Below are positions 7,760-43,890 of a stretch of 52,473 bases of DNA, in pieces (positions within the stretch are counted from its first letter, which is position 1; every line of letters starts with the position of its first letter). The translations under genes and the position numbers were made by a program. The notes beneath the pieces were generated by a model. The model did not search any database, had not been told where the DNA came from, and was given only the letters and a program-made list of their open reading frames with translations. This DNA is from a virus (taxonomy: Duplodnaviria > Heunggongvirae > Uroviricota > Caudoviricetes): positions 1-52,473 of IMG/VR virus record IMGVR_UViG_2541047750_000003; one strand, 5' to 3'.

Positions 7760-8064
7760 CGCATTTTCTCCTATGGTTAGAGTGAACGCGCGGGCGGGCA
7801 TCCCATTAGCATTAGATAGCAGTGACTGACCGCTCAACAGATCCCGCCGTTGCGTGATATTTGTTTTTCGCTTCGCAGCGACACCGGATTTTTAAAGAGC
7901 ATAAGGTAAGTGCCTTTTTGTGCCTTCCGTTATCTTTTTCCTTGCGTCTTTGCAAGTATGGCCTTACCTTGTCTGCAAGTTTACAAAATGGAATTTTAAA
8001 ATCAAGGCTTAAAATACACGTTTTGTGACTTGCATCAAACTTTTTGAGGTTATAGGGTAGCGAC
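7760..8064. promoter_or_regulatory. divergent immunity control region between cI and the minus-strand early operon
   Basis: 305-nt gap between divergent genes; contains TTTACAAAATGGA (7980-7992) and inverted AAGGTAAG/CTTACCTT arms; promoters and operators not resolved. Confidence 0.45.
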
Positions 8065-8835: not shown

Positions 8836-8864
8836 TTGACTCGATGTTTTACGGGGCGTATATT
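8836..8864 (+). promoter_or_regulatory. sigma70-like promoter (pL-equivalent)
   Basis: TTGACT, 17-nt spacer, TATATT; TACAAAATGGA motif abuts the -35. Confidence 0.5.
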
Positions 8865-9118
8865 GCGAGTCAAAGGAAGGGCGCAGGTAACAAAAGCAAC
8901 TTCCTGGCACTTTAAAAATCAGGCTTAACACCTTGTCAACCGTGGAGTAACTCCCCGATGGGGGACCGAAAGCGGCACTGATAACAAGGCGCATGGGGTG
9001 TTTAAAGCGTTACATCCCCCACGAAACCGCACGCAAGGCGACGAGTCAGCTTGCTTGGAGTGAGCAAGGTCACGCCGGGAACGGCGATGATTGCGGGATT
9101 AGTTGAAAGATGTTAAGC

Positions 9119-16489: not shown

Positions 16490-16511
16490 AGTTTACAAAA
16501 TGGCGTCATTG

Positions 16512-16527
16512 TGTGATGAATGTCACA
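16512..16527. promoter_or_regulatory. CRP-consensus-like palindrome TGTGA-N6-TCACA
   Basis: tgtgatgaatgtcaca matches both CRP half-sites; lies between inverted TACAAAATGG motifs upstream of the NinG operon. Confidence 0.35.
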
Positions 16528-16648
16528 TAATGGCGCTTTGCACCTTGTTAGCACGTATCCATTTTGTATACTTCAAGCAAACAAAATGCTCTTTAAAAAT
16601 CCGGCAGCGCTGAAATGCGTAGAAATCACCTGAAAAGGAGAGAGCATT

Positions 16649-37552: not shown

Positions 37553-37568
37553 CCGGGCCTTTTTTTTA
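37541..37568. terminator. bidirectional terminator between convergent genes
   Basis: gcccgg-gattag-ccgggc flanked by A-run and T-run. Confidence 0.6.
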
Positions 37569-38063
37569 ATAACCTATATAATATTCGTGGTGTTTATCTA
37601 TTACTTTTTTATACATGTTAGCGCCTTCTTTGATGCACATGTTTTTGAAGTCAATTCTTACCCTATCTAATGCCATCCCGTCGGCAGCGGCATAAGCGTT
37701 ATTGTCGTGATCCTTTATCGCCCGTTCGGCAGCCATGATGGCAAGTCCGGCGACAAAGTTTTTAAATTCATTGTCATTTTCTTTGTTTTCAATAACAGCC
37801 ATCATGTGAGCGAAACTTTCACTGTGCGCTTTTATCATTTTAGCGTCACTCTTTTTGGTCCTGCTATCTTTATTTAAGATGAAATACTCCCAGTTAACGC
37901 CGTGCCTACCAATTGAAAAAAAGTTTACATTTGCCATTGTATATGCTTTTTCGTAGGCTGGATAAATAGCGTCGCACATCTTGCTGACTTCATTACTTGC
38001 ATTTGCATTGACCGCGAATATTGCCATGACCGCAGCTACCGCGACTTTTACTAACCGTTTCAT
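37566..38063 (-). CDS. secreted moron protein (165 aa)
   Basis: Signal peptide MKRLVKVAVAAVMAIFAVNANA; opposite strand to tail genes; GAGG RBS. Confidence 0.55.
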   Translation of the reverse strand: MKRLVKVAVAAVMAIFAVNANASNEVSKMCDAIYPAYEKAYTMANVNFFSIGRHGVNWEYFILNKDSRTKKSDAKMIKAHSESFAHMMAVIENKENDNEFKNFVAGLAIMAAERAIKDHDNNAYAAADGMALDRVRIDFKNMCIKEGANMYKKVIDKHHEYYIGY

Positions 38064-38075
38064 AACCCGCCTCGA

Positions 38076-38165
38076 TTAATTTTTGTTTTTAAGTGCTTTT
38101 AACATTTCTTCTATGAAGTCCGCATAGCGTTCATGTTCGTTGGGACGATAGTTTACGTTTTTCAT
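38076..38165 (-). CDS. small protein (29 aa) upstream of the secreted moron
   Basis: MKNVNYRPNEHERYADFIEEMLKALKNKN; stop 12 nt before downstream start. Confidence 0.25.
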   Translation of the reverse strand: MKNVNYRPNEHERYADFIEEMLKALKNKN

Positions 38166-38244
38166 TTTCTTATCCTCTTTTGCTTCCTCCGGTTTATCCG
38201 GTCCTTTCAAACCCCTTTACTCTATCCCTTTCCTTTAGTCTCTT

Positions 38245-38307
38245 TATACAAAATGGAGTCGTTGTAGCAAAGACATTTTGTATAAAATAGATACACAGAT
38301 CACAAAA
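38245..38307. promoter_or_regulatory. divergent regulatory region with inverted TATACAAAATG/CATTTTGTATA and the 14-mer CACAGATCACAAAA
   Basis: 11-bp inverted repeat arms at 38245-38255 and 38274-38284; 14-mer at 38294-38307 identical to 50344-50357. Confidence 0.5.
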
Positions 38308-38321
38308 GTGGAGTAACAATC

Positions 38322-40535
38322 ATGACAATAAATGTAGGCACGATTGAGTATACCGTTGACGCAAAAACCGAGCGGTTACTCGTAGCTCAACGCAAGGCGG
38401 AAGACTCGTTTGATAAAATCGAGCAAAGCGCTAAACGTACCGATAAATCAGTGCAGTCACTTAACACCACGATAAGTAATTTATCCAAAGCTGTGAACAT
38501 TGGAATGATGCTCATGGCTGCAAAAAAATTCCTGGAGATCGCAGATAACGTGAATCTGCTACGCGCCAGGGTGACGCGGCTATCAAGCGGCATTGCTGAC
38601 GCAAAATCGAATTTTGACGGGATTATTCAGATATCGAATCGCACAGGGATGAGTGTTCAAAGCACCGGGAAGCTGTGGGAAAGCCTAAAGGCCAGCCTGC
38701 AGGATACCAGCGCGACCAGTCAGCAGGTATTGCAGCTTACCGACTCACTCCAAAAAATAGGGCGTATCGGTGGAAGCTCTTCGGATGAAATGTCAAACGC
38801 GTTGCGCCAGTTAGGGCAGTCACTGACTGGCGGCATTGTTCGCGCGGAAGAATACAACTCTGTACTTGAAAATATGCCAGAAGTATGGCGACGCGTCGCT
38901 AAACAAATGGGGATCTCGATGGGTGAACTTCGCGCAAGAATGCTTGATGGTAAGCTCACCGCCGAGGATGTTACTAATTCAATTCTTGCTGGCGCAGAAG
39001 ACATAGAGAAGGATTTCGCAAAGCTGCCAACAACAACAGATCAGGCATTTAACGAGCTAAAAAACAACTTCGATCTGTTAATTGACACGCTAAACCAAAC
39101 GCTTGGAGTGTCTGATTTGGTGGTTACTGGTATACAGGCTGTTTCTAGTGAAGTTCAGATGTTATCCGGTTGGTTTAAGTCCCTGGCGAGCGATAGCACG
39201 TCATTAACTGATAAATTGTGGCTATTGGCTGGGGCGTTTGAGGGTATAGTGCCTGGGCTTAGTTTGTTTCGCGCTCAAGCGAAACAGGTTGGATGGTTTG
39301 ATGGCGGAGAACAGCCATTTGTTTCCACTCTCCCCACGGGGCAAGCTGGTGTAAGTCGCATAACATTTAAGCCTCAACCTGGTGGCAAGGGTAAGAAAGG
39401 CAAAGGTAAAAAATCCGGCAAATCAGAAGCCGAGCGCCTTGCGGAACAGGGTGTGCGCATTTCAGATGCATACAACGAAGATTCAGCAGCAATGCGCAAA
39501 GCGCTTGAATCACAAAAAGCCATAGATGCAGCCTTTAAAGCCGGGAAAATAACCATGCTTGAATACAAAGGTGCAATGAAGGGAATTGGTGATGAATTGC
39601 GCGAAACTCTGGCAGAAATTAACGACCCGATCAATAGGCTGCAAGAAAAATGGGACAAAATGATTCCATCACTGGATCAGAAGCGCGGCGAGCTGGACCC
39701 AATACAGCAGGCGCAAAATGAATGGACCATACGCAAGCAAATGCTGGAAGATCTTGGCGCTACCGAGCAATACATGAAGGAGCAAGAAAGAGCGCACGCA
39801 CAAGAAATGCTCTCCCTTGAATGGGAGCGATATAAAGCACAGTCAATGAGCTACAAACTATTGGGCGATACCGTTGATGCAATGGGAGGATCTGCAACAA
39901 ATGCGCTTGTGGGCCTGGTTAACGGCACTCAAAGTTGGCAGCAGGCGCTGGCTAACATTGGCAATACAATCCTTTCCTCCGTTATCGGTACACTTGTTCA
40001 AATGGGGGCTGAATGGGTTAAACAGCAATTGATCGGTGAGGCCGCCAGCGCAGCCGCAACAGCTAAAGCATTGGCAGAGGCTACCGCTTTGGGATCTGCG
40101 TGGGCCACTCCTGCATACCTGGCAAACGTTGCCACGATGGGCGGAGCGGCGACCGTGGGGGGAACGAGTCTTGCCACTGGTGTGGCTGGGGCTAAGGCGC
40201 TTGGCCTGGCTGGCGCTCGTTATAACGGCGGTGCGGTGGCTGCGGGCAGCCTCTATAAGGTCGGCGAACACGGTAAACCGGAGATCTTTCAGGCGAGCAA
40301 TGGGAGTCAGTACATGATTCCGGGTGACAACGGCAGGGTAATACCAAATCGCGACATTGGCGGTGCTGGTGGTGGTAGCGTTAGTATAAACGCGCCGATT
40401 AGTGTTTACCCCCAAAATGGATGGAGCGATGAGGATGCCAAAAAGCTACAACAGGACATGGAAAGGATCTGCATGGGCCTGATGCACCGCGAATCATCCA
40501 GACCAGGCGGAATGTTGCAACCTCGCAGGAAATAA
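38322..40535 (+). CDS. tail tape measure protein
   Basis: 737 aa; helical/coiled-coil N-terminal two-thirds, Gly/Ala-rich region (GGAATVGG...), position upstream of M-L-K-I-J-like genes. Confidence 0.75.
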   Translation: MTINVGTIEYTVDAKTERLLVAQRKAEDSFDKIEQSAKRTDKSVQSLNTTISNLSKAVNIGMMLMAAKKFLEIADNVNLLRARVTRLSSGIADAKSNFDGIIQISNRTGMSVQSTGKLWESLKASLQDTSATSQQVLQLTDSLQKIGRIGGSSSDEMSNALRQLGQSLTGGIVRAEEYNSVLENMPEVWRRVAKQMGISMGELRARMLDGKLTAEDVTNSILAGAEDIEKDFAKLPTTTDQAFNELKNNFDLLIDTLNQTLGVSDLVVTGIQAVSSEVQMLSGWFKSLASDSTSLTDKLWLLAGAFEGIVPGLSLFRAQAKQVGWFDGGEQPFVSTLPTGQAGVSRITFKPQPGGKGKKGKGKKSGKSEAERLAEQGVRISDAYNEDSAAMRKALESQKAIDAAFKAGKITMLEYKGAMKGIGDELRETLAEINDPINRLQEKWDKMIPSLDQKRGELDPIQQAQNEWTIRKQMLEDLGATEQYMKEQERAHAQEMLSLEWERYKAQSMSYKLLGDTVDAMGGSATNALVGLVNGTQSWQQALANIGNTILSSVIGTLVQMGAEWVKQQLIGEAASAAATAKALAEATALGSAWATPAYLANVATMGGAATVGGTSLATGVAGAKALGLAGARYNGGAVAAGSLYKVGEHGKPEIFQASNGSQYMIPGDNGRVIPNRDIGGAGGGSVSINAPISVYPQNGWSDEDAKKLQQDMERICMGLMHRESSRPGGMLQPRRK

Positions 40536-40676
40536 ACAAAACCCCGGCACAATGCCGGGGCTATTTTCGTATTTATAAACGACCATTTCGCGCGATACAC
40601 ACTCATCCGAAATTACCTGCCAAATATTCCAGATCTCCCGCAAGGTGAATTTATCGTCCTCCATATCCAGCCTCAC
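40494..40676 (-). CDS. questionable small ORF (60 aa)
   Basis: Track ORF overlapping the terminator and the 3-prime end of the tape measure gene; could be the third gene of the minus-strand cassette. Confidence 0.2.
   Translation of the reverse strand: MRLDMEDDKFTLREIWNIWQVISDECVSREMVVYKYENSPGIVPGFCLFPARLQHSAWSG
40542..40574. terminator. intrinsic terminator after tape measure gene
   Basis: ccccggc-acaat-gccgggg followed by T-rich tract. Confidence 0.6.
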
Positions 40677-40927
40677 TTATGCGCACCCTTCACCCCGCAT
40701 AACTTGTTGTAAGCGTGGTGCTCAACAATTAACCACACCTTCAAATCTTCACTGAACAGCCTCCAGTCGAGATTGATATCCATTTTGTAGCCATACCCAT
40801 CGCGTAACTTTTTGGGGCGCACCTCTTTATTTAAAAATGCTTTAAGCAGTTCCTTACCTTTCTTGATAATCCGGTCCTGTGCGTTTTTCTGTACTTTCAG
40901 GTTTTTGTCAATCGCCACCAGTTTCAT
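40673..40927 (-). CDS. RelE/ParE/YoeB-fold toxin-like protein (84 aa)
   Basis: Basic small protein; C-terminal YKMDINLDWRLFSEDLKVWLIVEHHAY resembles the toxin core strands; assignment tentative. Confidence 0.35.
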   Translation of the reverse strand: MKLVAIDKNLKVQKNAQDRIIKKGKELLKAFLNKEVRPKKLRDGYGYKMDINLDWRLFSEDLKVWLIVEHHAYNKLCGVKGAHK

Positions 40928-40944
40928 ATCTCACCCCATCATCC

Positions 40945-41100
40945 TTAGTTAAGTGCCTTCAGGAAGAAATCCCGGTATTCATCTTCCTTCGCATTCATCA
41001 TGAATTGACCGTATTTGAATGCGTCATCGAAACCCTTAACGATTGCTATTTCCACTTGTTCGAATGCGTTGTTCAGCATTACAACCACATAGCGTTTCAT
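40945..41100 (-). CDS. small protein (51 aa), possible partner of the toxin-like gene
   Basis: MKRYVVVMLNNAFEQVEIAIVKGFDDAFKYGQFMMNAKEDEYRDFFLKALN; GGAGG RBS; ends 17 nt before downstream start. Confidence 0.4.
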   Translation of the reverse strand: MKRYVVVMLNNAFEQVEIAIVKGFDDAFKYGQFMMNAKEDEYRDFFLKALN

Positions 41101-41213
41101 TTTGGGCCTCCTTCGTTGGTACTGCTTTTCTTCTTGCTTTCTATATACACCTTGTTACACCATGCATGAAGCCATATTGTAAACTAGCTATAATTATTGT
41201 GACTAATATCTCG

Positions 41214-41237
41214 TTTTTCGCGTAGAAGCGCGTAAAG
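41214..41237 (+). promoter_or_regulatory. conserved element TTTTTCGCGTAGAAGCGCGTAAAG (copy 2)
   Basis: 22 of 24 nt identical to 29393-29416; 32 nt upstream of M-like gene. Confidence 0.45.
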
Positions 41238-41268
41238 ATATATACAATATGTAACTTATGGAGGGCTT

Positions 41269-41622
41269 ATGCCGGAAGTATTCAGGTGGACGCCGCAAAG
41301 AAGCTACAGCGTGACCAGGGAGCCGGACATATCCGTTGTTAAGCTGGGCGATGGTTATGAGCAAAGACAGGTAAAAGGCATCAATCCATTGCTTGATAGT
41401 TACACCCTGGTTTTTAAAGGCAGTAGTGCGGGATGCGGTGATGATGGGAATGTAGCGATCCAGGCTGAAGCATTTTTGAGGGCGCGCGGCGCTGTCGAGG
41501 CTTTCTACTGGACGCCGTCGATGGATGGAGTGCAAAGGCTTTTCGTTTGCCGTAGCTGGAGTATGACCAAAGACGGGCCTATGTACACGCTAAACGCAAC
41601 GTTTGAACAAGTTGTTGGCTAA
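41269..41622 (+). CDS. minor tail protein M-like
   Basis: 117 aa; FRWTPQ...GDGYEQRQ...FEQVVG matches recalled lambda M (FRWKVKP...GDGYSQR...FEQVVN). Confidence 0.75.
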   Translation: MPEVFRWTPQRSYSVTREPDISVVKLGDGYEQRQVKGINPLLDSYTLVFKGSSAGCGDDGNVAIQAEAFLRARGAVEAFYWTPSMDGVQRLFVCRSWSMTKDGPMYTLNATFEQVVG

Positions 41623-41633
41623 TGGAGGTTGTT

Positions 41634-41819
41634 ATGTACGGCACTTGTATAGTTGATGAGGCTGACGCTTTTACATTGTATGACGACTATGAGATCAACG
41701 ACCTTGCTGTAAAGGCTGACAACGGCGATATATGGTATCTTCACGACGTTGGTGATGGGTACGTGGGGTGTAGATCCTGGGAAGGGAAGGAGGTTTTATT
41801 TTTGGTTGATGGCGTATAA
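41634..41819 (+). CDS. hypothetical protein (61 aa)
   Basis: Start refined to ATG after GGAGGT; extra gene between M-like and L-like. Confidence 0.35.
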   Translation: MYGTCIVDEADAFTLYDDYEINDLAVKADNGDIWYLHDVGDGYVGCRSWEGKEVLFLVDGV

Positions 41820-41825
41820 ACACGA

Positions 41826-41852
41826 CCCCGCGCGAAGCGGGGTTATTATTAT
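41826..41852. terminator. terminator hairpin at convergent junction
   Basis: ccccgc-gcgaa-gcgggg followed by TTATTATTATT. Confidence 0.5.
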
Positions 41853-41965
41853 TCCATTTCCATTAATGCTATATTTTCCGCTATCGTTTTCCAGTCCAGA
41901 TCTACAGCATGAACACCAAATACTATCAATCCCATTGCGATTAGTGCTAAAACTTCGATTTTCAT
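41849..41965 (-). CDS. small hydrophobic-N-terminus protein (38 aa), last gene of minus-strand island
   Basis: MKIEVLALIAMGLIVFGVHAVDLDWKTIAENIALMEME; GTGAGG RBS. Confidence 0.35.
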   Translation of the reverse strand: MKIEVLALIAMGLIVFGVHAVDLDWKTIAENIALMEME

Positions 41966-42056
41966 AATCAACCTCACTTAATTAAGAAAGGCATAAACGA
42001 TGGCAATCGCGCCAGCCACTACCAAAACATTTCGATCACTTCGTCTACTTTATTGA

Positions 42057-42260
42057 TTAAGGTAACTCCACTTCGTTAAATGTAACAAGCACCCCTTGAT
42101 TTTCTTTATTTATAATTATGAAGGCATTAATTGAAGGCAGACATCTTTCCACGTGGTAAACGTCACCAATATCTAAACTGTAATATTCTGTTAATTCTCT
42201 ATTGTTCCCTTTAGCAAAACCCGTAAACCTAACCTTTTTTTGACCGTCGTACTTTAACAT
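42057..42260 (-). CDS. hypothetical moron protein (67 aa)
   Basis: Track ORF in minus-strand island. Confidence 0.4.
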   Translation of the reverse strand: MLKYDGQKKVRFTGFAKGNNRELTEYYSLDIGDVYHVERCLPSINAFIIINKENQGVLVTFNEVELP

Positions 42261-42268
42261 ATACAGTC

Positions 42269-42517
42269 CTATAGGTTATCACGCAGATAATTAACGCCTT
42301 TGTCAGTGACGAATGAGTGATTAACCTGGTTTTCATCCGTCATGATGATGAATAACTTTTCCTGTAGGTATTTCGCTTTAGGGTACAGCGTTAAGCAGAC
42401 CTGGTACAGTATCCCGCGCTCAATCAGCAAATCAATAAATTCGTGTTCATGATAACCGATAAGGCGGGCGGCCTGTTTCAACGTGTACACATAATCCCCG
42501 TGATTACGCCGCGCCAT
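42269..42517 (-). CDS. hypothetical moron protein, possible HTH (82 aa)
   Basis: AAGGTGGA RBS; YTLKQAARLIGYHEHEFIDLLIERGIL is HTH-like. Confidence 0.45.
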   Translation of the reverse strand: MARRNHGDYVYTLKQAARLIGYHEHEFIDLLIERGILYQVCLTLYPKAKYLQEKLFIIMTDENQVNHSFVTDKGVNYLRDNL

Positions 42518-42526
42518 ACTTCCACC

Positions 42527-42877
42527 TTATTTATCGAAAGCAGATAGATTGTCTATACAGAAATCTTTTGCCGCTTTTTCGTATTCGTGTTTTGCTTCTG
42601 GATCGTCTGCCGGGAAACCTTTTGCGTGTATTTCACCAGGGCAAGACTGATCCATAGAATCAGCAAATTCAACATTGACGTTAAAGTTAATATCTTTCGG
42701 GTTCATCTCTTCCACCTTATCCGGTACATGGACCGGAGTAATATCAAAATCACGAGCGTTAGACCAACAGCGAAGTAATTCACAACCTTCATCACGCGCC
42801 GCAGCATATGTGTCAAATAGGCCCATGCGCTCCCATTCGCATTTATCAGTCCACACTTCTAAACTGTATTTTTGCAT
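42527..42877 (-). CDS. hypothetical moron protein (116 aa)
   Basis: GGGAGG RBS; acidic, Cys-containing. Confidence 0.45.
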   Translation of the reverse strand: MQKYSLEVWTDKCEWERMGLFDTYAAARDEGCELLRCWSNARDFDITPVHVPDKVEEMNPKDINFNVNVEFADSMDQSCPGEIHAKGFPADDPEAKHEYEKAAKDFCIDNLSAFDK

Positions 42878-43056
42878 TTTTTGTTAACCTCCCATTTGTC
42901 CCATTTGACAGGTTCGATCCGGTATCCCAAAAGGCGGTCATCCTCAGCAAGTAAAAGCGCGTCAACCAATGCTTCCCCCTCGTCGTCATACAGGGCGATA
43001 ACCTTTTCCCTACCGTCTGTCATGAATACCGTCAACTTCCATAGCTTTTCAGTCAT
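42859..43056 (-). CDS. hypothetical moron protein (65 aa)
   Basis: Start refined to MTEKLWKL after GGAGGTG RBS (track ORF 42859..43176). Confidence 0.4.
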   Translation of the reverse strand: MTEKLWKLTVFMTDGREKVIALYDDEGEALVDALLLAEDDRLLGYRIEPVKWDKWEVNKKCKNTV

Positions 43057-43132
43057 AACGCACCTCCGCGCCATTTTGTTAACTATGCTTCCGTTTGAGT
43101 AAAATATACATATTGTAAAAACCGCGATCAAT

Positions 43133-43167
43133 CCATTTTGGTATGATTTAGCGTGACGCAGATCACA
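43133..43167. promoter_or_regulatory. divergent regulatory region with CCATTTTGGTA and CAGATCACA elements
   Basis: Partial copies of the motifs seen at 38274-38307 and 50317-50357, ~20 nt upstream of the L-like ATG. Confidence 0.4.
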
Positions 43168-43185
43168 GAATGACAAGGTGAGAAA

Positions 43186-43890
43186 ATGCGCAATATTCCG
43201 AGAGAAATGATTATTGATTCCGTCGATGCCGGAGTCGGCGCGGTAATTGACTTGTTTGAATTAGACCTCACGCCCCTGGGTGGCGAGGTTATCCGCTTCC
43301 ATTCCGGCGTGAATGGCTATTACGGCCCGGTTATCTGGAAGGGGGTGGCTTACAACAGCTACCCTATCGAGGCCACAGGCTTCGAAATGAAAAACGAGGG
43401 TGTCTATTCACGCCCGCAAATGGTTGTAGCAAACATTGGCGGCCTAATCACCGGGATGAATAACGATTTCAACGACCTGCGAGGAATGAAAGTTACACGC
43501 CGCCAGGTGGAAGTAAAATACCTGGACGCCATCAACTTCCCCAACGGCAACCCGGATGCAGATCCGTCTATCGAGGCGGTGTCTTTTTACGTCGTTGAGG
43601 CGATGAGCGAAGAAACAGCCGACCAGGTGCAATATGAGCTGTCAACGCCAATTGATGCTGACAAGGCGGTTATCCCAGGGCGCACAATCCTTGCTGACGT
43701 TTGCCAATGGCAATATCGCGGCGACAGTTGCGGATACAGTGGCGGCCCTGTAGCTACTGATAAAGACGAATCGACCAGCGATCCAAAGCTGGATAAATGC
43801 AGCCACCGCCTGAGCGGTTGCCGTTTACGTTTCCCGCGCCCGAATCCGTTACCAATTTCATGTTTCCCAGGATCGAGCAAGGTGGGTTGA
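43186..43890 (+). CDS. minor tail protein L-like
   Basis: 234 aa; QWQYRGDSCGYSG and DKCSHRLSGCRLRF match recalled lambda L (TWTYRGDECGYSG, DKCSKCLSGCKFRN). Confidence 0.8.
   Translation: MRNIPREMIIDSVDAGVGAVIDLFELDLTPLGGEVIRFHSGVNGYYGPVIWKGVAYNSYPIEATGFEMKNEGVYSRPQMVVANIGGLITGMNNDFNDLRGMKVTRRQVEVKYLDAINFPNGNPDADPSIEAVSFYVVEAMSEETADQVQYELSTPIDADKAVIPGRTILADVCQWQYRGDSCGYSGGPVATDKDESTSDPKLDKCSHRLSGCRLRFPRPNPLPISCFPGSSKVG

Follow-up and report, generated by a model that had tools for sequence, protein, structure and literature searches.

What are five small genes, all read against the late strand, doing between two phage tail genes? The question is raised by a DNA stretch of 52,473 nucleotides (nt) (IMG/VR virus record IMGVR_UViG_2541047750_000003, positions 1 to 52,473; hereafter the window), in which five minus-strand open reading frames (ORFs), here called genes A to E, form an island at 41849-43056 between the tail genes M and L. 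In a preliminary description of the window, the island had been taken for an insertion into an otherwise conserved tail block and for a typical site of lysogenic-conversion or defence cargo. Our analysis points to a different picture, namely a core of A, B and C that appears to be fixed in the phage group, predicted to be transcribed as a unit of its own from an early-type promoter with a CRP-type site in front, and carrying as its most conserved gene one for a protein that apparently consists of a KilAC domain alone.

The window is assigned to the mEp021 group (mEpimmI) of coliphages, the region of the island being 85-93% identical in nucleotide sequence to the same part of mEp515, mEp013, mEp044, mEp010, mEp021, mEp554 and MagusPhagus, and matching prophages are present in 40 of 5426 complete E. 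coli genomes. The mEpimmI phages are Nus-dependent, non-lambdoid phages of one common immunity group that are as frequent as lambdoid phages in human faecal isolates, and Q-like antitermination of their late genes was inferred by the authors of that study (PMC11893012). The KilAC-like protein appears there merely as a near-core gene, with the operon, CRP and cyclic AMP (cAMP) unmentioned (PMC11893012). Our comparison set consisted of 55 related loci with both flanks (12 annotated and 43 from IMG/VR), called the relatives below, besides which three additional loci came from divergent lineages. Ratios of nonsynonymous to synonymous substitution (dN/dS) were calculated by the Nei-Gojobori method (NG86) from 10-45 distinct sequences per gene, and the regulatory region was aligned over 41 distinct upstream sequences.

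Organization of the island

The island comprises the following features, with the ribosome-binding site (RBS) of each gene and protein lengths in amino acids (aa).

43056-42859, minus strand: gene A, 65 aa, RBS GGAGGTG (43067-43061)
42877-42527, minus strand: gene B, 116 aa, RBS GGGAGG
42517-42269, minus strand: gene C, 82 aa, RBS GGTGGA
42260-42057, minus strand: gene D, 67 aa, weak RBS AGGA
41965-41849, minus strand: gene E, 38 aa, RBS GAGG
41824-41844, both strands: bidirectional intrinsic terminator, a G+C-rich hairpin with a T-rich tail, carrying a terminator score on each strand

The positions and lengths of the five co-directional ORFs (65, 116, 82, 67 and 38 aa at 41849-43056) are exactly as first described, and the good RBSs claimed for most of them were borne out by a Shine-Dalgarno sequence in front of all five, that of D being weak. 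A and B overlap by 19 nt, and the overlap suggests that their translation may be coupled. The terminator hairpin said to end the run was likewise recovered at 41824-41844 with an energy of about -16 kcal/mol on each strand (-16.3 kcal/mol on the island strand and -16.1 kcal/mol on the other); it is common to the island on the minus strand and the late genes M and X on the plus strand, is kept in the relatives, and carries an annotation as a terminator in mEp021 and mEp515. G+C content is 36-47% within 41700-43100 versus 46-59% in the tape-measure, M, L and K genes. Because the island has a predicted promoter of its own (see below), a terminator and a G+C content below that of its flanks, it is predicted to be an independent minus-strand transcription unit within the late tail operon. 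An Rfam scan of 40400-43300 found no RNA families.

Promoter, CRP-type site and leader

Conservation is higher in the 130 bp separating L from A than in gene A, and three elements were recognized in this interval.

43152-43167, minus strand: CRP-type site TGTGATCTGCGTCACG (TGTGA-N6-TCACG), agreeing with 9/10 CRP core positions
43103-43131, minus strand: sigma-70-type promoter from a consensus scan, TTGATC (43131-43126), 17-bp spacer, TATATT (43108-43103)
43057-43095, minus strand: conserved leader with the block GTTAACAAAATGG (43083-43071), near-invariant in the 41 sequences, and the RBS

Both promoter hexamers and the 17-bp spacer are retained in 40 of the 41 distinct sequences, and transcription is predicted to start near 43096. 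The half-sites of the CRP-type site are retained in 39 of the 41, with the spacer between them occurring in 13 forms; invariant half-sites around a variable spacer are the signature to be expected of a dimeric CRP-type site. By chance, an agreement of 9/10 with the CRP core is expected 1.39 times in the whole window and about 0.003 times in the promoter interval. With the start assumed 7 nt past the -10 element, the site is centred at -63.5 in the window and at -62.5 or -63.5 in relatives, and the divergent L063 lineage carries a perfect TGTGATCTGCATCACA (10/10) centred at -61.5 with TTGATT-17-TATATT downstream. With CRP binding and the start site both being predictions, this would be the geometry of a class I CRP-dependent promoter, whose site is centred near -61.5 or whole helical turns farther upstream.

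The best non-self match to the island promoter in the window is the early rightward promoter at 8838-8866, which precedes the gene for an N-like protein. Positions 43145-43066 align with it at a score of 39 versus 13.4 +/- 2.1 for shuffled sequences (reached in 0/2000 shuffles), and the leader of the early promoter holds a block, GGTAACAAAA, similar to that of the island. The island promoter is thus evidently a paralogue of the early rightward promoter over the span that begins with the -35-proximal box and ends with the leader block GTTAACAAAA.

In many relatives an 8-2-8 palindrome, TACAATAT-GT-ATATTGTA, lies over the -10 element; it is imperfect in the present phage. The palindrome was considered as an operator for the prophage repressor and demoted, as the window holds no second copy and the L063 lineage has lost it, and it may represent two overlapping divergent -10 hexamers. 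Searching for ACAA-N8-TTGT returned nothing relevant, and direct reading of 43057-43185 gave no LexA box of the form CTGT-N8-ACAG.

Conservation and coding status

An insertion into an otherwise conserved M-L-K-I-J block, as first proposed, is not what the comparison revealed. The slot between M-X and L holds an island of 1009-1695 bp in 55/55 relatives, and the three loci from divergent lineages hold one in the same slot, indicating that the island is itself conserved. Its gene order among relatives is A-B-[F or HNH]-C-[D]-[E]-[H]; of the 55 relatives, all have C, 54 have A, about 54 have B, 40 have E and 11 have D. Because the island is found in all 55 relatives and A, B and C are near-universal, the A-B-C core is by all appearances a fixed component of the phage group and not a recent insertion. 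Compared with lambda-type tail modules generally, where M adjoins L, the island is an extra; the distribution that defines a moron, an extra found in some relatives only, is not that of the island (55/55) and is seen for the D cassette alone.

The dN/dS values are 0.25 for A, 0.21 for B, 0.08 for C, 0.31 for D and 0.18 for E, with baselines of 0.066 for M, 0.039 for L and 0.097 for X. Because these ratios range from 0.08 to 0.31, all five ORFs are evidently real genes under purifying selection, and they are kept as coding sequence in the relatives, the opposite of the outcome that would have counted against the initial reading. The dN of C is 0.021 versus 0.030 for L and 0.050 for M, so that C diverges less in amino-acid sequence than either tail protein. 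The dS of gene C (42269-42517) is low as well, at 0.31 less than half the values of about 0.76 for M and L and 0.93 for B, which suggests either extra constraint at the nucleotide level or a recent homogenisation of C across the group.

Gene C encodes a predicted stand-alone KilAC protein

The preliminary description had assigned no function to any of the five genes, which stands for four of them, these being without a family of known function, and has to be revised for C. Its product matches Pfam PF03374 (ANT/KilAC) above the gathering score (29.9 bits, cut-off 25.3, E = 7e-7) over profile positions 23-105 of 108, and C is the only island protein matched by Pfam. On this match the 82-aa protein is read as being made up of the ANT/KilAC domain alone; the two-domain architecture of Ant proteins (N-terminal Bro-N, AntA/B, KilA-N or Rha followed by KilAC) was not encountered in C, which has KilAC only. 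C is 90-100% identical across the 55 relatives. Beyond this phage group, C comes closest (32-38% identity) to the C-terminal domains of Ant/Rha proteins from Vibrio, Cronobacter and Hafnia phages, proteins of 220-235 aa that have about 145 extra residues at the N-terminus. No solved structure was detectable for C by sequence, and sequence and profile searches for solved-structure relatives of A, B, C and D gave nothing significant. PHROG matches were obtained for A, B and C at E <= 1e-21 and, weakly, for D (5.5e-6). As to defence cargo, no NCBIfam or PADLOC model matched any of the five proteins, PADLOC-DB 2.0 giving none at E <= 1, which speaks against that part of the initial proposal.

What a KilAC domain can do has been reported for AriS of Listeria phage phi10403S, a 259-aa protein of two domains: overexpressed on its own, its KilAC domain suppressed both the host SOS response and the induction of the prophage (PMC9043618).

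Genes A and B

Gene A (PHROG 29559) encodes an acidic protein (isoelectric point (pI) 4.9) for which Pfam, NCBIfam and PADLOC returned no family match. Its AlphaFold2 (AF2) model has a mean predicted local distance difference test (pLDDT) score of 78 and the elements E4-12, E17-23, H26-37 and E42-51, so that A is predicted to be an acidic soluble protein of beta-beta-alpha-beta fold. The 'transporter' label given to A in RefSeq was rejected as an annotation artefact, A being acidic and soluble with no membrane segment and no family match.

Gene B encodes a very acidic protein (pI 4.5) of two unlike parts. Residues 1-50 are variable and mosaic and are modelled by AF2 as beta-beta-alpha-beta, with elements in the same order as in A and a pLDDT of about 94; residues 71-116 form a highly conserved C-terminal module, modelled as a disordered segment leading into a helix. 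Calculated separately, dN/dS comes to 0.24 in the N-terminal part and 0.08 in the C-terminal one. The B family is restricted to the mEpimmI group, in which it forms 56 clusters at 90% identity, and had only 15 matches in 1.84 billion representative proteins; the sole real return of an exhaustive profile search with B was its own family. Long OmpA-like repeat proteins with 'GHAKGQPADDNEAK' in common gave weak matches to B over several stretches, which we dismissed as spurious. In two such repeat proteins, P0095 and P0097 (693-866 aa), the repeated motif CEGHAKGQPADDNEAKRKLS resembles the conserved EIHAKGFPADDPEAKREYE of B, a likeness judged to be chance similarity to the OmpA-like repeat.

In the L063/L064 lineage, which has the most divergent C (73% identity), a single 172-aa protein takes the place of A and B. 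Residues 58-171 of this fusion are a homologue of B (hhalign E = 2e-40), and residues 3-50 align in register, weakly (E = 0.026), to A. The natural A-B fusion argues that A and B work together, and A and the N-terminal half of B are read as paralogous small acidic beta-beta-alpha-beta proteins. Foldseek found this fold to be common to many uncharacterised 50-70-aa phage proteins and returned no informative PDB neighbour.

The D cassette and the membrane peptide E

Gene D lies on an optional segment at the 3' side of C.

41977-42266, minus strand: optional 290-bp cassette with gene D, in the alignment a clean insertion right after the C stop codon
42014-42001, minus strand: weak hairpin in the 3' stretch of the D cassette

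The cassette is the region's lowest-G+C stretch (36%). D is found in 11/55 relatives and in 3/5426 complete E. coli genomes, each time in this slot, and had no match in 50,697 phage records. D is swappable cargo, and the sole such gene of the island; the initial cargo proposal therefore survives for the 290-bp D cassette and fails for the near-universal A, B and C. In relatives, the 3' part of the cassette (41990-42056 in the window) also holds a hydrophobic mini-ORF of 23-26 aa (MDEVIENVLVVAGAIAIVYAFLN), which is intact in L004, L005 and L020; in the present phage a 1-nt deletion has left a frameshifted remnant of it.

Gene E is predicted to encode a tiny one-helix membrane peptide, with a single hydrophobic helix (residues 4-20) and an acidic tail. 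Thirteen of the 15 loci without E have an unrelated 24-aa hydrophobic peptide at the same place, which brings tiny hydrophobic peptides of two unrelated types to the island 3' end in 53/55 loci.

Sister antisense units and a phage-wide motif

Three further minus-strand units are held by the tail region, at 37566-38210, 40673-41100 and 49974-50222. The last two, which are those scanned for terminators, are also ended by bidirectional ones.

The lipoprotein gene at 49974-50222 (lipobox LTGC; bidirectional terminator at 49948-49968) corresponds to the Lpp superinfection-exclusion genes of PMC11893012, where such genes (gp81 of mEp021, gp116 of mEp010) were reported to exclude superinfecting phages (PMC11893012). 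Upstream of it lie a CRP-type site, TTGTGATCTGTGTTACA (50339-50355), and then a TACAAAATGTAT box. The site would sit at about -41.5 relative to a TATTTA -10 element, a class II geometry, and its right half-site is weaker; its TGTGA half is conserved in four phages (including mEp010, mEp021 and MagusPhagus).

The unit at 40673-41100, between the tape-measure gene and M, has its terminator at 40540-40562 and holds a 51-aa ORF (PHROG 29810) followed by the gene for an 84-aa protein in which a ParE-like toxin domain is recognized (PF24732, E = 2e-12). It is kept in relatives, where RefSeq uses the name 'ParE family toxin-like protein', and its two genes may constitute a toxin-antitoxin pair within the tail operon. 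The unit at 37566-38210, between a DUF6246 tail gene and the tape-measure gene, encodes a 165-aa protein (N-terminus like a signal peptide, no Pfam family) and a 44-aa ORF. Two TACAAAATG boxes inverted relative to each other (38247 and 38282) lie upstream of this unit, as does a TTGTGATCTGTGT half-site (38289-38305).

The 9-mer TACAAWATG occurs 18 times in the window versus about 1.2 expected, 15 of the copies being intergenic. Its extended consensus is TwTACAAAATG(G/T)At, and the 16-mer version has 9 matches versus 0.59 in shuffles. The motif marks the early promoter, the control regions of all four antisense units and, in front of the CI-like repressor gene, the immunity region. The 18 sites are at the following positions.

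1041, 3997, 5144, 7982, 8825, 9504, 12946, 16494, 16568: TACAAWATG
22896, 30623, 38247, 38282, 40789, 41181, 41243, 43117, 50327: TACAAWATG

Two further CRP-type sequences were noticed. A perfect CRP-type palindrome, TGTGATGAATGTCACA (16512-16527), lies between inverted TACAAAATGG boxes (16494-16568) and adjoins a boxA-like GCTCTTTAAAAATCC element; the area of the latter is probably the nutR2 region of the mEpimmI paper. Another CRP-like site, at 8024-8039, is found 26 bp in front of the start codon of the repressor gene.

Flanking tail genes

The genes next to the island on the late strand are as follows.

41269-41622, plus strand: tail gene M (Pfam Phage_min_tail, E = 2e-28)
41622-41819, plus strand: gene X, a 65-aa very acidic ORF (pI 4.05, PHROG 3249)
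43186-43890, plus strand: tail gene L (Pfam Phage_tail_L, E = 1e-71)

The M-like and L-like flanks named in the preliminary description are thus confirmed by Pfam, and K, I and J come after L in the tail block as described. Gene X lies directly 3' of M, stops at the shared terminator and is kept in all relatives. In some relatives, variable slots of the tail region are filled by HNH homing-endonuclease genes, which lie inside the island, in the B-C gap, in one relative (L053), and between I and J in mEp021 and mEp515 (L002 and L001). The tail region of the present phage is free of HNH genes, and J directly follows I.

A tentative model and its alternatives

Combining these results, we tentatively propose, with somewhat less than even confidence, that the island is a CRP-gated antisense operon with a regulatory or host-modulating role that tunes the lysis-lysogeny switch. 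The parts of this proposal differ in strength: the architecture is very probable, CRP control is favoured by a slight balance on the sequence of the promoter region, and a function in lysogeny or the SOS response is rather doubtful. According to the model, the operon would run leftward from the promoter beside L and end at the terminator shared with M and X. Host cAMP-CRP would activate it under carbon limitation as long as the late genes are not transcribed (in the lysogen or in early infection), and antiterminated late transcription would later pass the terminator, collide head-on with the operon and shut it off. C and the conserved tail of B would bind a conserved partner, likeliest Rep021 (the group's one CI-type repressor, which is highly conserved) or the RecA/SOS machinery, and through this contact would adjust the choice between lysis and lysogeny in phages that ultraviolet (UV) light fails to induce. 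A and the N-terminal domain of B, both variable, would be directed at variable host or competitor targets. In the mEpimmI group, UV does not induce lysogens and the repressor is without a canonical cleavage site (PMC11893012).

Several points weigh against this model. The promoter, the start site and CRP dependence are all predictions, and with the start placed 7 nt past the -10 element, most relatives have the CRP-type site centred 1-2 bp away from the canonical -61.5. The likeness to the early promoter could mean that the prophage repressor silences the operon in lysogens. KilAC is without an established molecular mechanism, the SOS effect of the AriS KilAC domain came from overexpression only and in a Gram-positive host (PMC9043618), and characterised antirepressors bear an additional N-terminal domain that C does not have. 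Finally, the low G+C content, the membrane peptide, the variability of A and B and the exclusion-gene neighbour with its similar upstream site fit lysogenic conversion or exclusion about equally well.

The alternative that survives best, though we consider it unlikely, is the view taken in the preliminary description, a classical moron that the repressed prophage would express to the advantage of the lysogen, by conversion, by superinfection exclusion or by defence against phages, with E, possibly together with D, blocking incoming phages and A and B varying because they track competitor phages. A predicted promoter and terminator of its own and a G+C content below that of the flanks are defining moron traits (PMC3594210), the tiny hydrophobic peptide at the 3' end in 53/55 loci recalls HK97 gp15, and D is a rare cassette; moreover, the lipoprotein exclusion gene is preceded by a similar CRP-type site and TACAAAATG box, and A and the B N-terminal domain are mosaic and variable. 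However, A, B and C are fixed group-wide and C is conserved like essential tail proteins, which is unusual for optional cargo. PADLOC, Pfam and NCBIfam gave no defence families, signal peptides and membrane segments are absent from A, B, C and D, and the promoter is paralogous to an early lytic one.

Another possibility, less likely again, is that the island is an early lytic host-takeover or anti-defence operon, which would fire from its early-type promoter directly upon infection or induction, in which A and B would inhibit host proteins such as defence systems or nucleases, and which head-on late transcription would then silence. The paralogy extends over the promoter, the -35-proximal upstream box and the leader, A and B are small, acidic, lineage-restricted and mosaic, as is typical of phage inhibitors, and their beta-beta-alpha-beta fold is common to many uncharacterised 50-70-aa phage proteins. 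By contrast, no similarity to characterised anti-defence proteins was found, CRP gating is not predicted by such a role, and the most conserved gene, C with its KilAC domain, would be left unaccounted for.

It is distinctly improbable that the island is a nutrient-sensing second control region in which the CRP-induced KilAC protein and the B tail act on RecA/SOS or on the non-cleavable Rep021. If this were true, prophage maintenance or induction would be coupled to carbon status, which would explain the indifference of the lysogens to UV, and the CRP-type site and the TACAAAATG box (18 copies) would join the four antisense tail units and the immunity region into one regulon.

Still more improbable is a region like P22 immI, in which C would be a true antirepressor of Rep021 and a small repressor bound to the -10 palindrome would hold the promoter off. 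KilAC is a signature domain of Ant-type proteins, antirepressor genes often lie outside the immunity region (PMC3121763), Rep021 is highly conserved and without a cleavage site in lysogens that are not UV-inducible, and the -10 palindrome is present in many relatives. However, the palindrome is unique in the window, imperfect there and absent in L063, which keeps the promoter and CRP site, and it is explicable as two overlapping divergent -10 hexamers. Pfam finds no ribbon-helix-helix or other repressor family among the five island proteins, 43057-43185 is without a LexA box, and C is without the N-terminal domain of characterised Ant proteins.

That the five ORFs are fortuitous, lying in a non-coding spacer or a decayed remnant, has a negligible probability, since their shortness and the want of a family of known function for four of the five are outweighed by the substitution pattern, which already refutes it (dN/dS 0.08-0.31), by conserved RBSs and an A/B overlap suggestive of coupled translation, by confident AF2 domain models, and by PHROG matches for A, B and C (weak for D).

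Significance and comparison with known systems

In the proposed model, a conserved and probably CRP-gated operon with a KilAC-only protein is a testable candidate for the control input that is missing for mEpimmI lysogens. The island also offers a natural system for learning the stand-alone role of the KilAC domain, which is widespread but obscure in its mechanism, and an entry point into the control of non-SOS prophages. In the literature searched, a fixed five-gene antisense operon with a stand-alone KilAC protein and a defined cargo slot is undescribed, as are a duplicated early-type promoter with a class I CRP-type site and motifs common to three sister units.

P22 immI (mnt-arc-ant) is a second immunity region among late genes. 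The island resembles it as a regulatory operon with an Ant-family gene that is placed in the late or tail gene block, at a distance from the main immunity region, and has a strong promoter of its own. Unlike P22 immI, it has no Arc- or Mnt-type repressors, a KilAC-only C in place of full-length Ant, and a CRP-type site in place of Mnt/Arc operators. With AriS (PMC9043618), C has in common the Pfam ANT/KilAC domain, the comparison covering shared Pfam membership; C is naturally stand-alone, unlike AriS with its 259 aa, two domains and origin in a Gram-positive phage. The LexA-controlled antirepressors of Gifsy, 186 (Tum) and N15 (AntC) are comparable as small proteins encoded outside the immunity region that control induction in phages with uncleaved repressors (PMC3121763), from which the island differs by the lack of a LexA box, by its predicted cAMP-CRP input and by the absence of any sequence relationship.

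Closer at hand are the lipoprotein exclusion genes of mEpimmI phages (PMC11893012), of which that of the present phage (49974-50222) is likewise a minus-strand tail-region unit with a bidirectional terminator, a TTGTGATCTG...(CRP-type) site and a TACAAAATGTAT box. They differ in specifying a single secreted lipoprotein with demonstrated exclusion, in occurring as four types, and in being absent from 17% of relatives.

An independent unit inside a tail operon is a known kind of element. Like the lambdoid morons, of which HK97 gene 15 is an example (PMC3594210), the island is an independent unit in a tail or late operon, with a predicted promoter and a terminator of its own, a differing G+C content and a small inner-membrane peptide. 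Unlike HK97 gene 15, it has five genes instead of one, is antisense to the late operon, and has an A-B-C core fixed in all relatives; the D cassette is the only part of it that behaves as a classical moron. Antisense tail units that look like morons can thus be fixed core modules with a cargo slot, for which the label of a defence island is not to be presumed.

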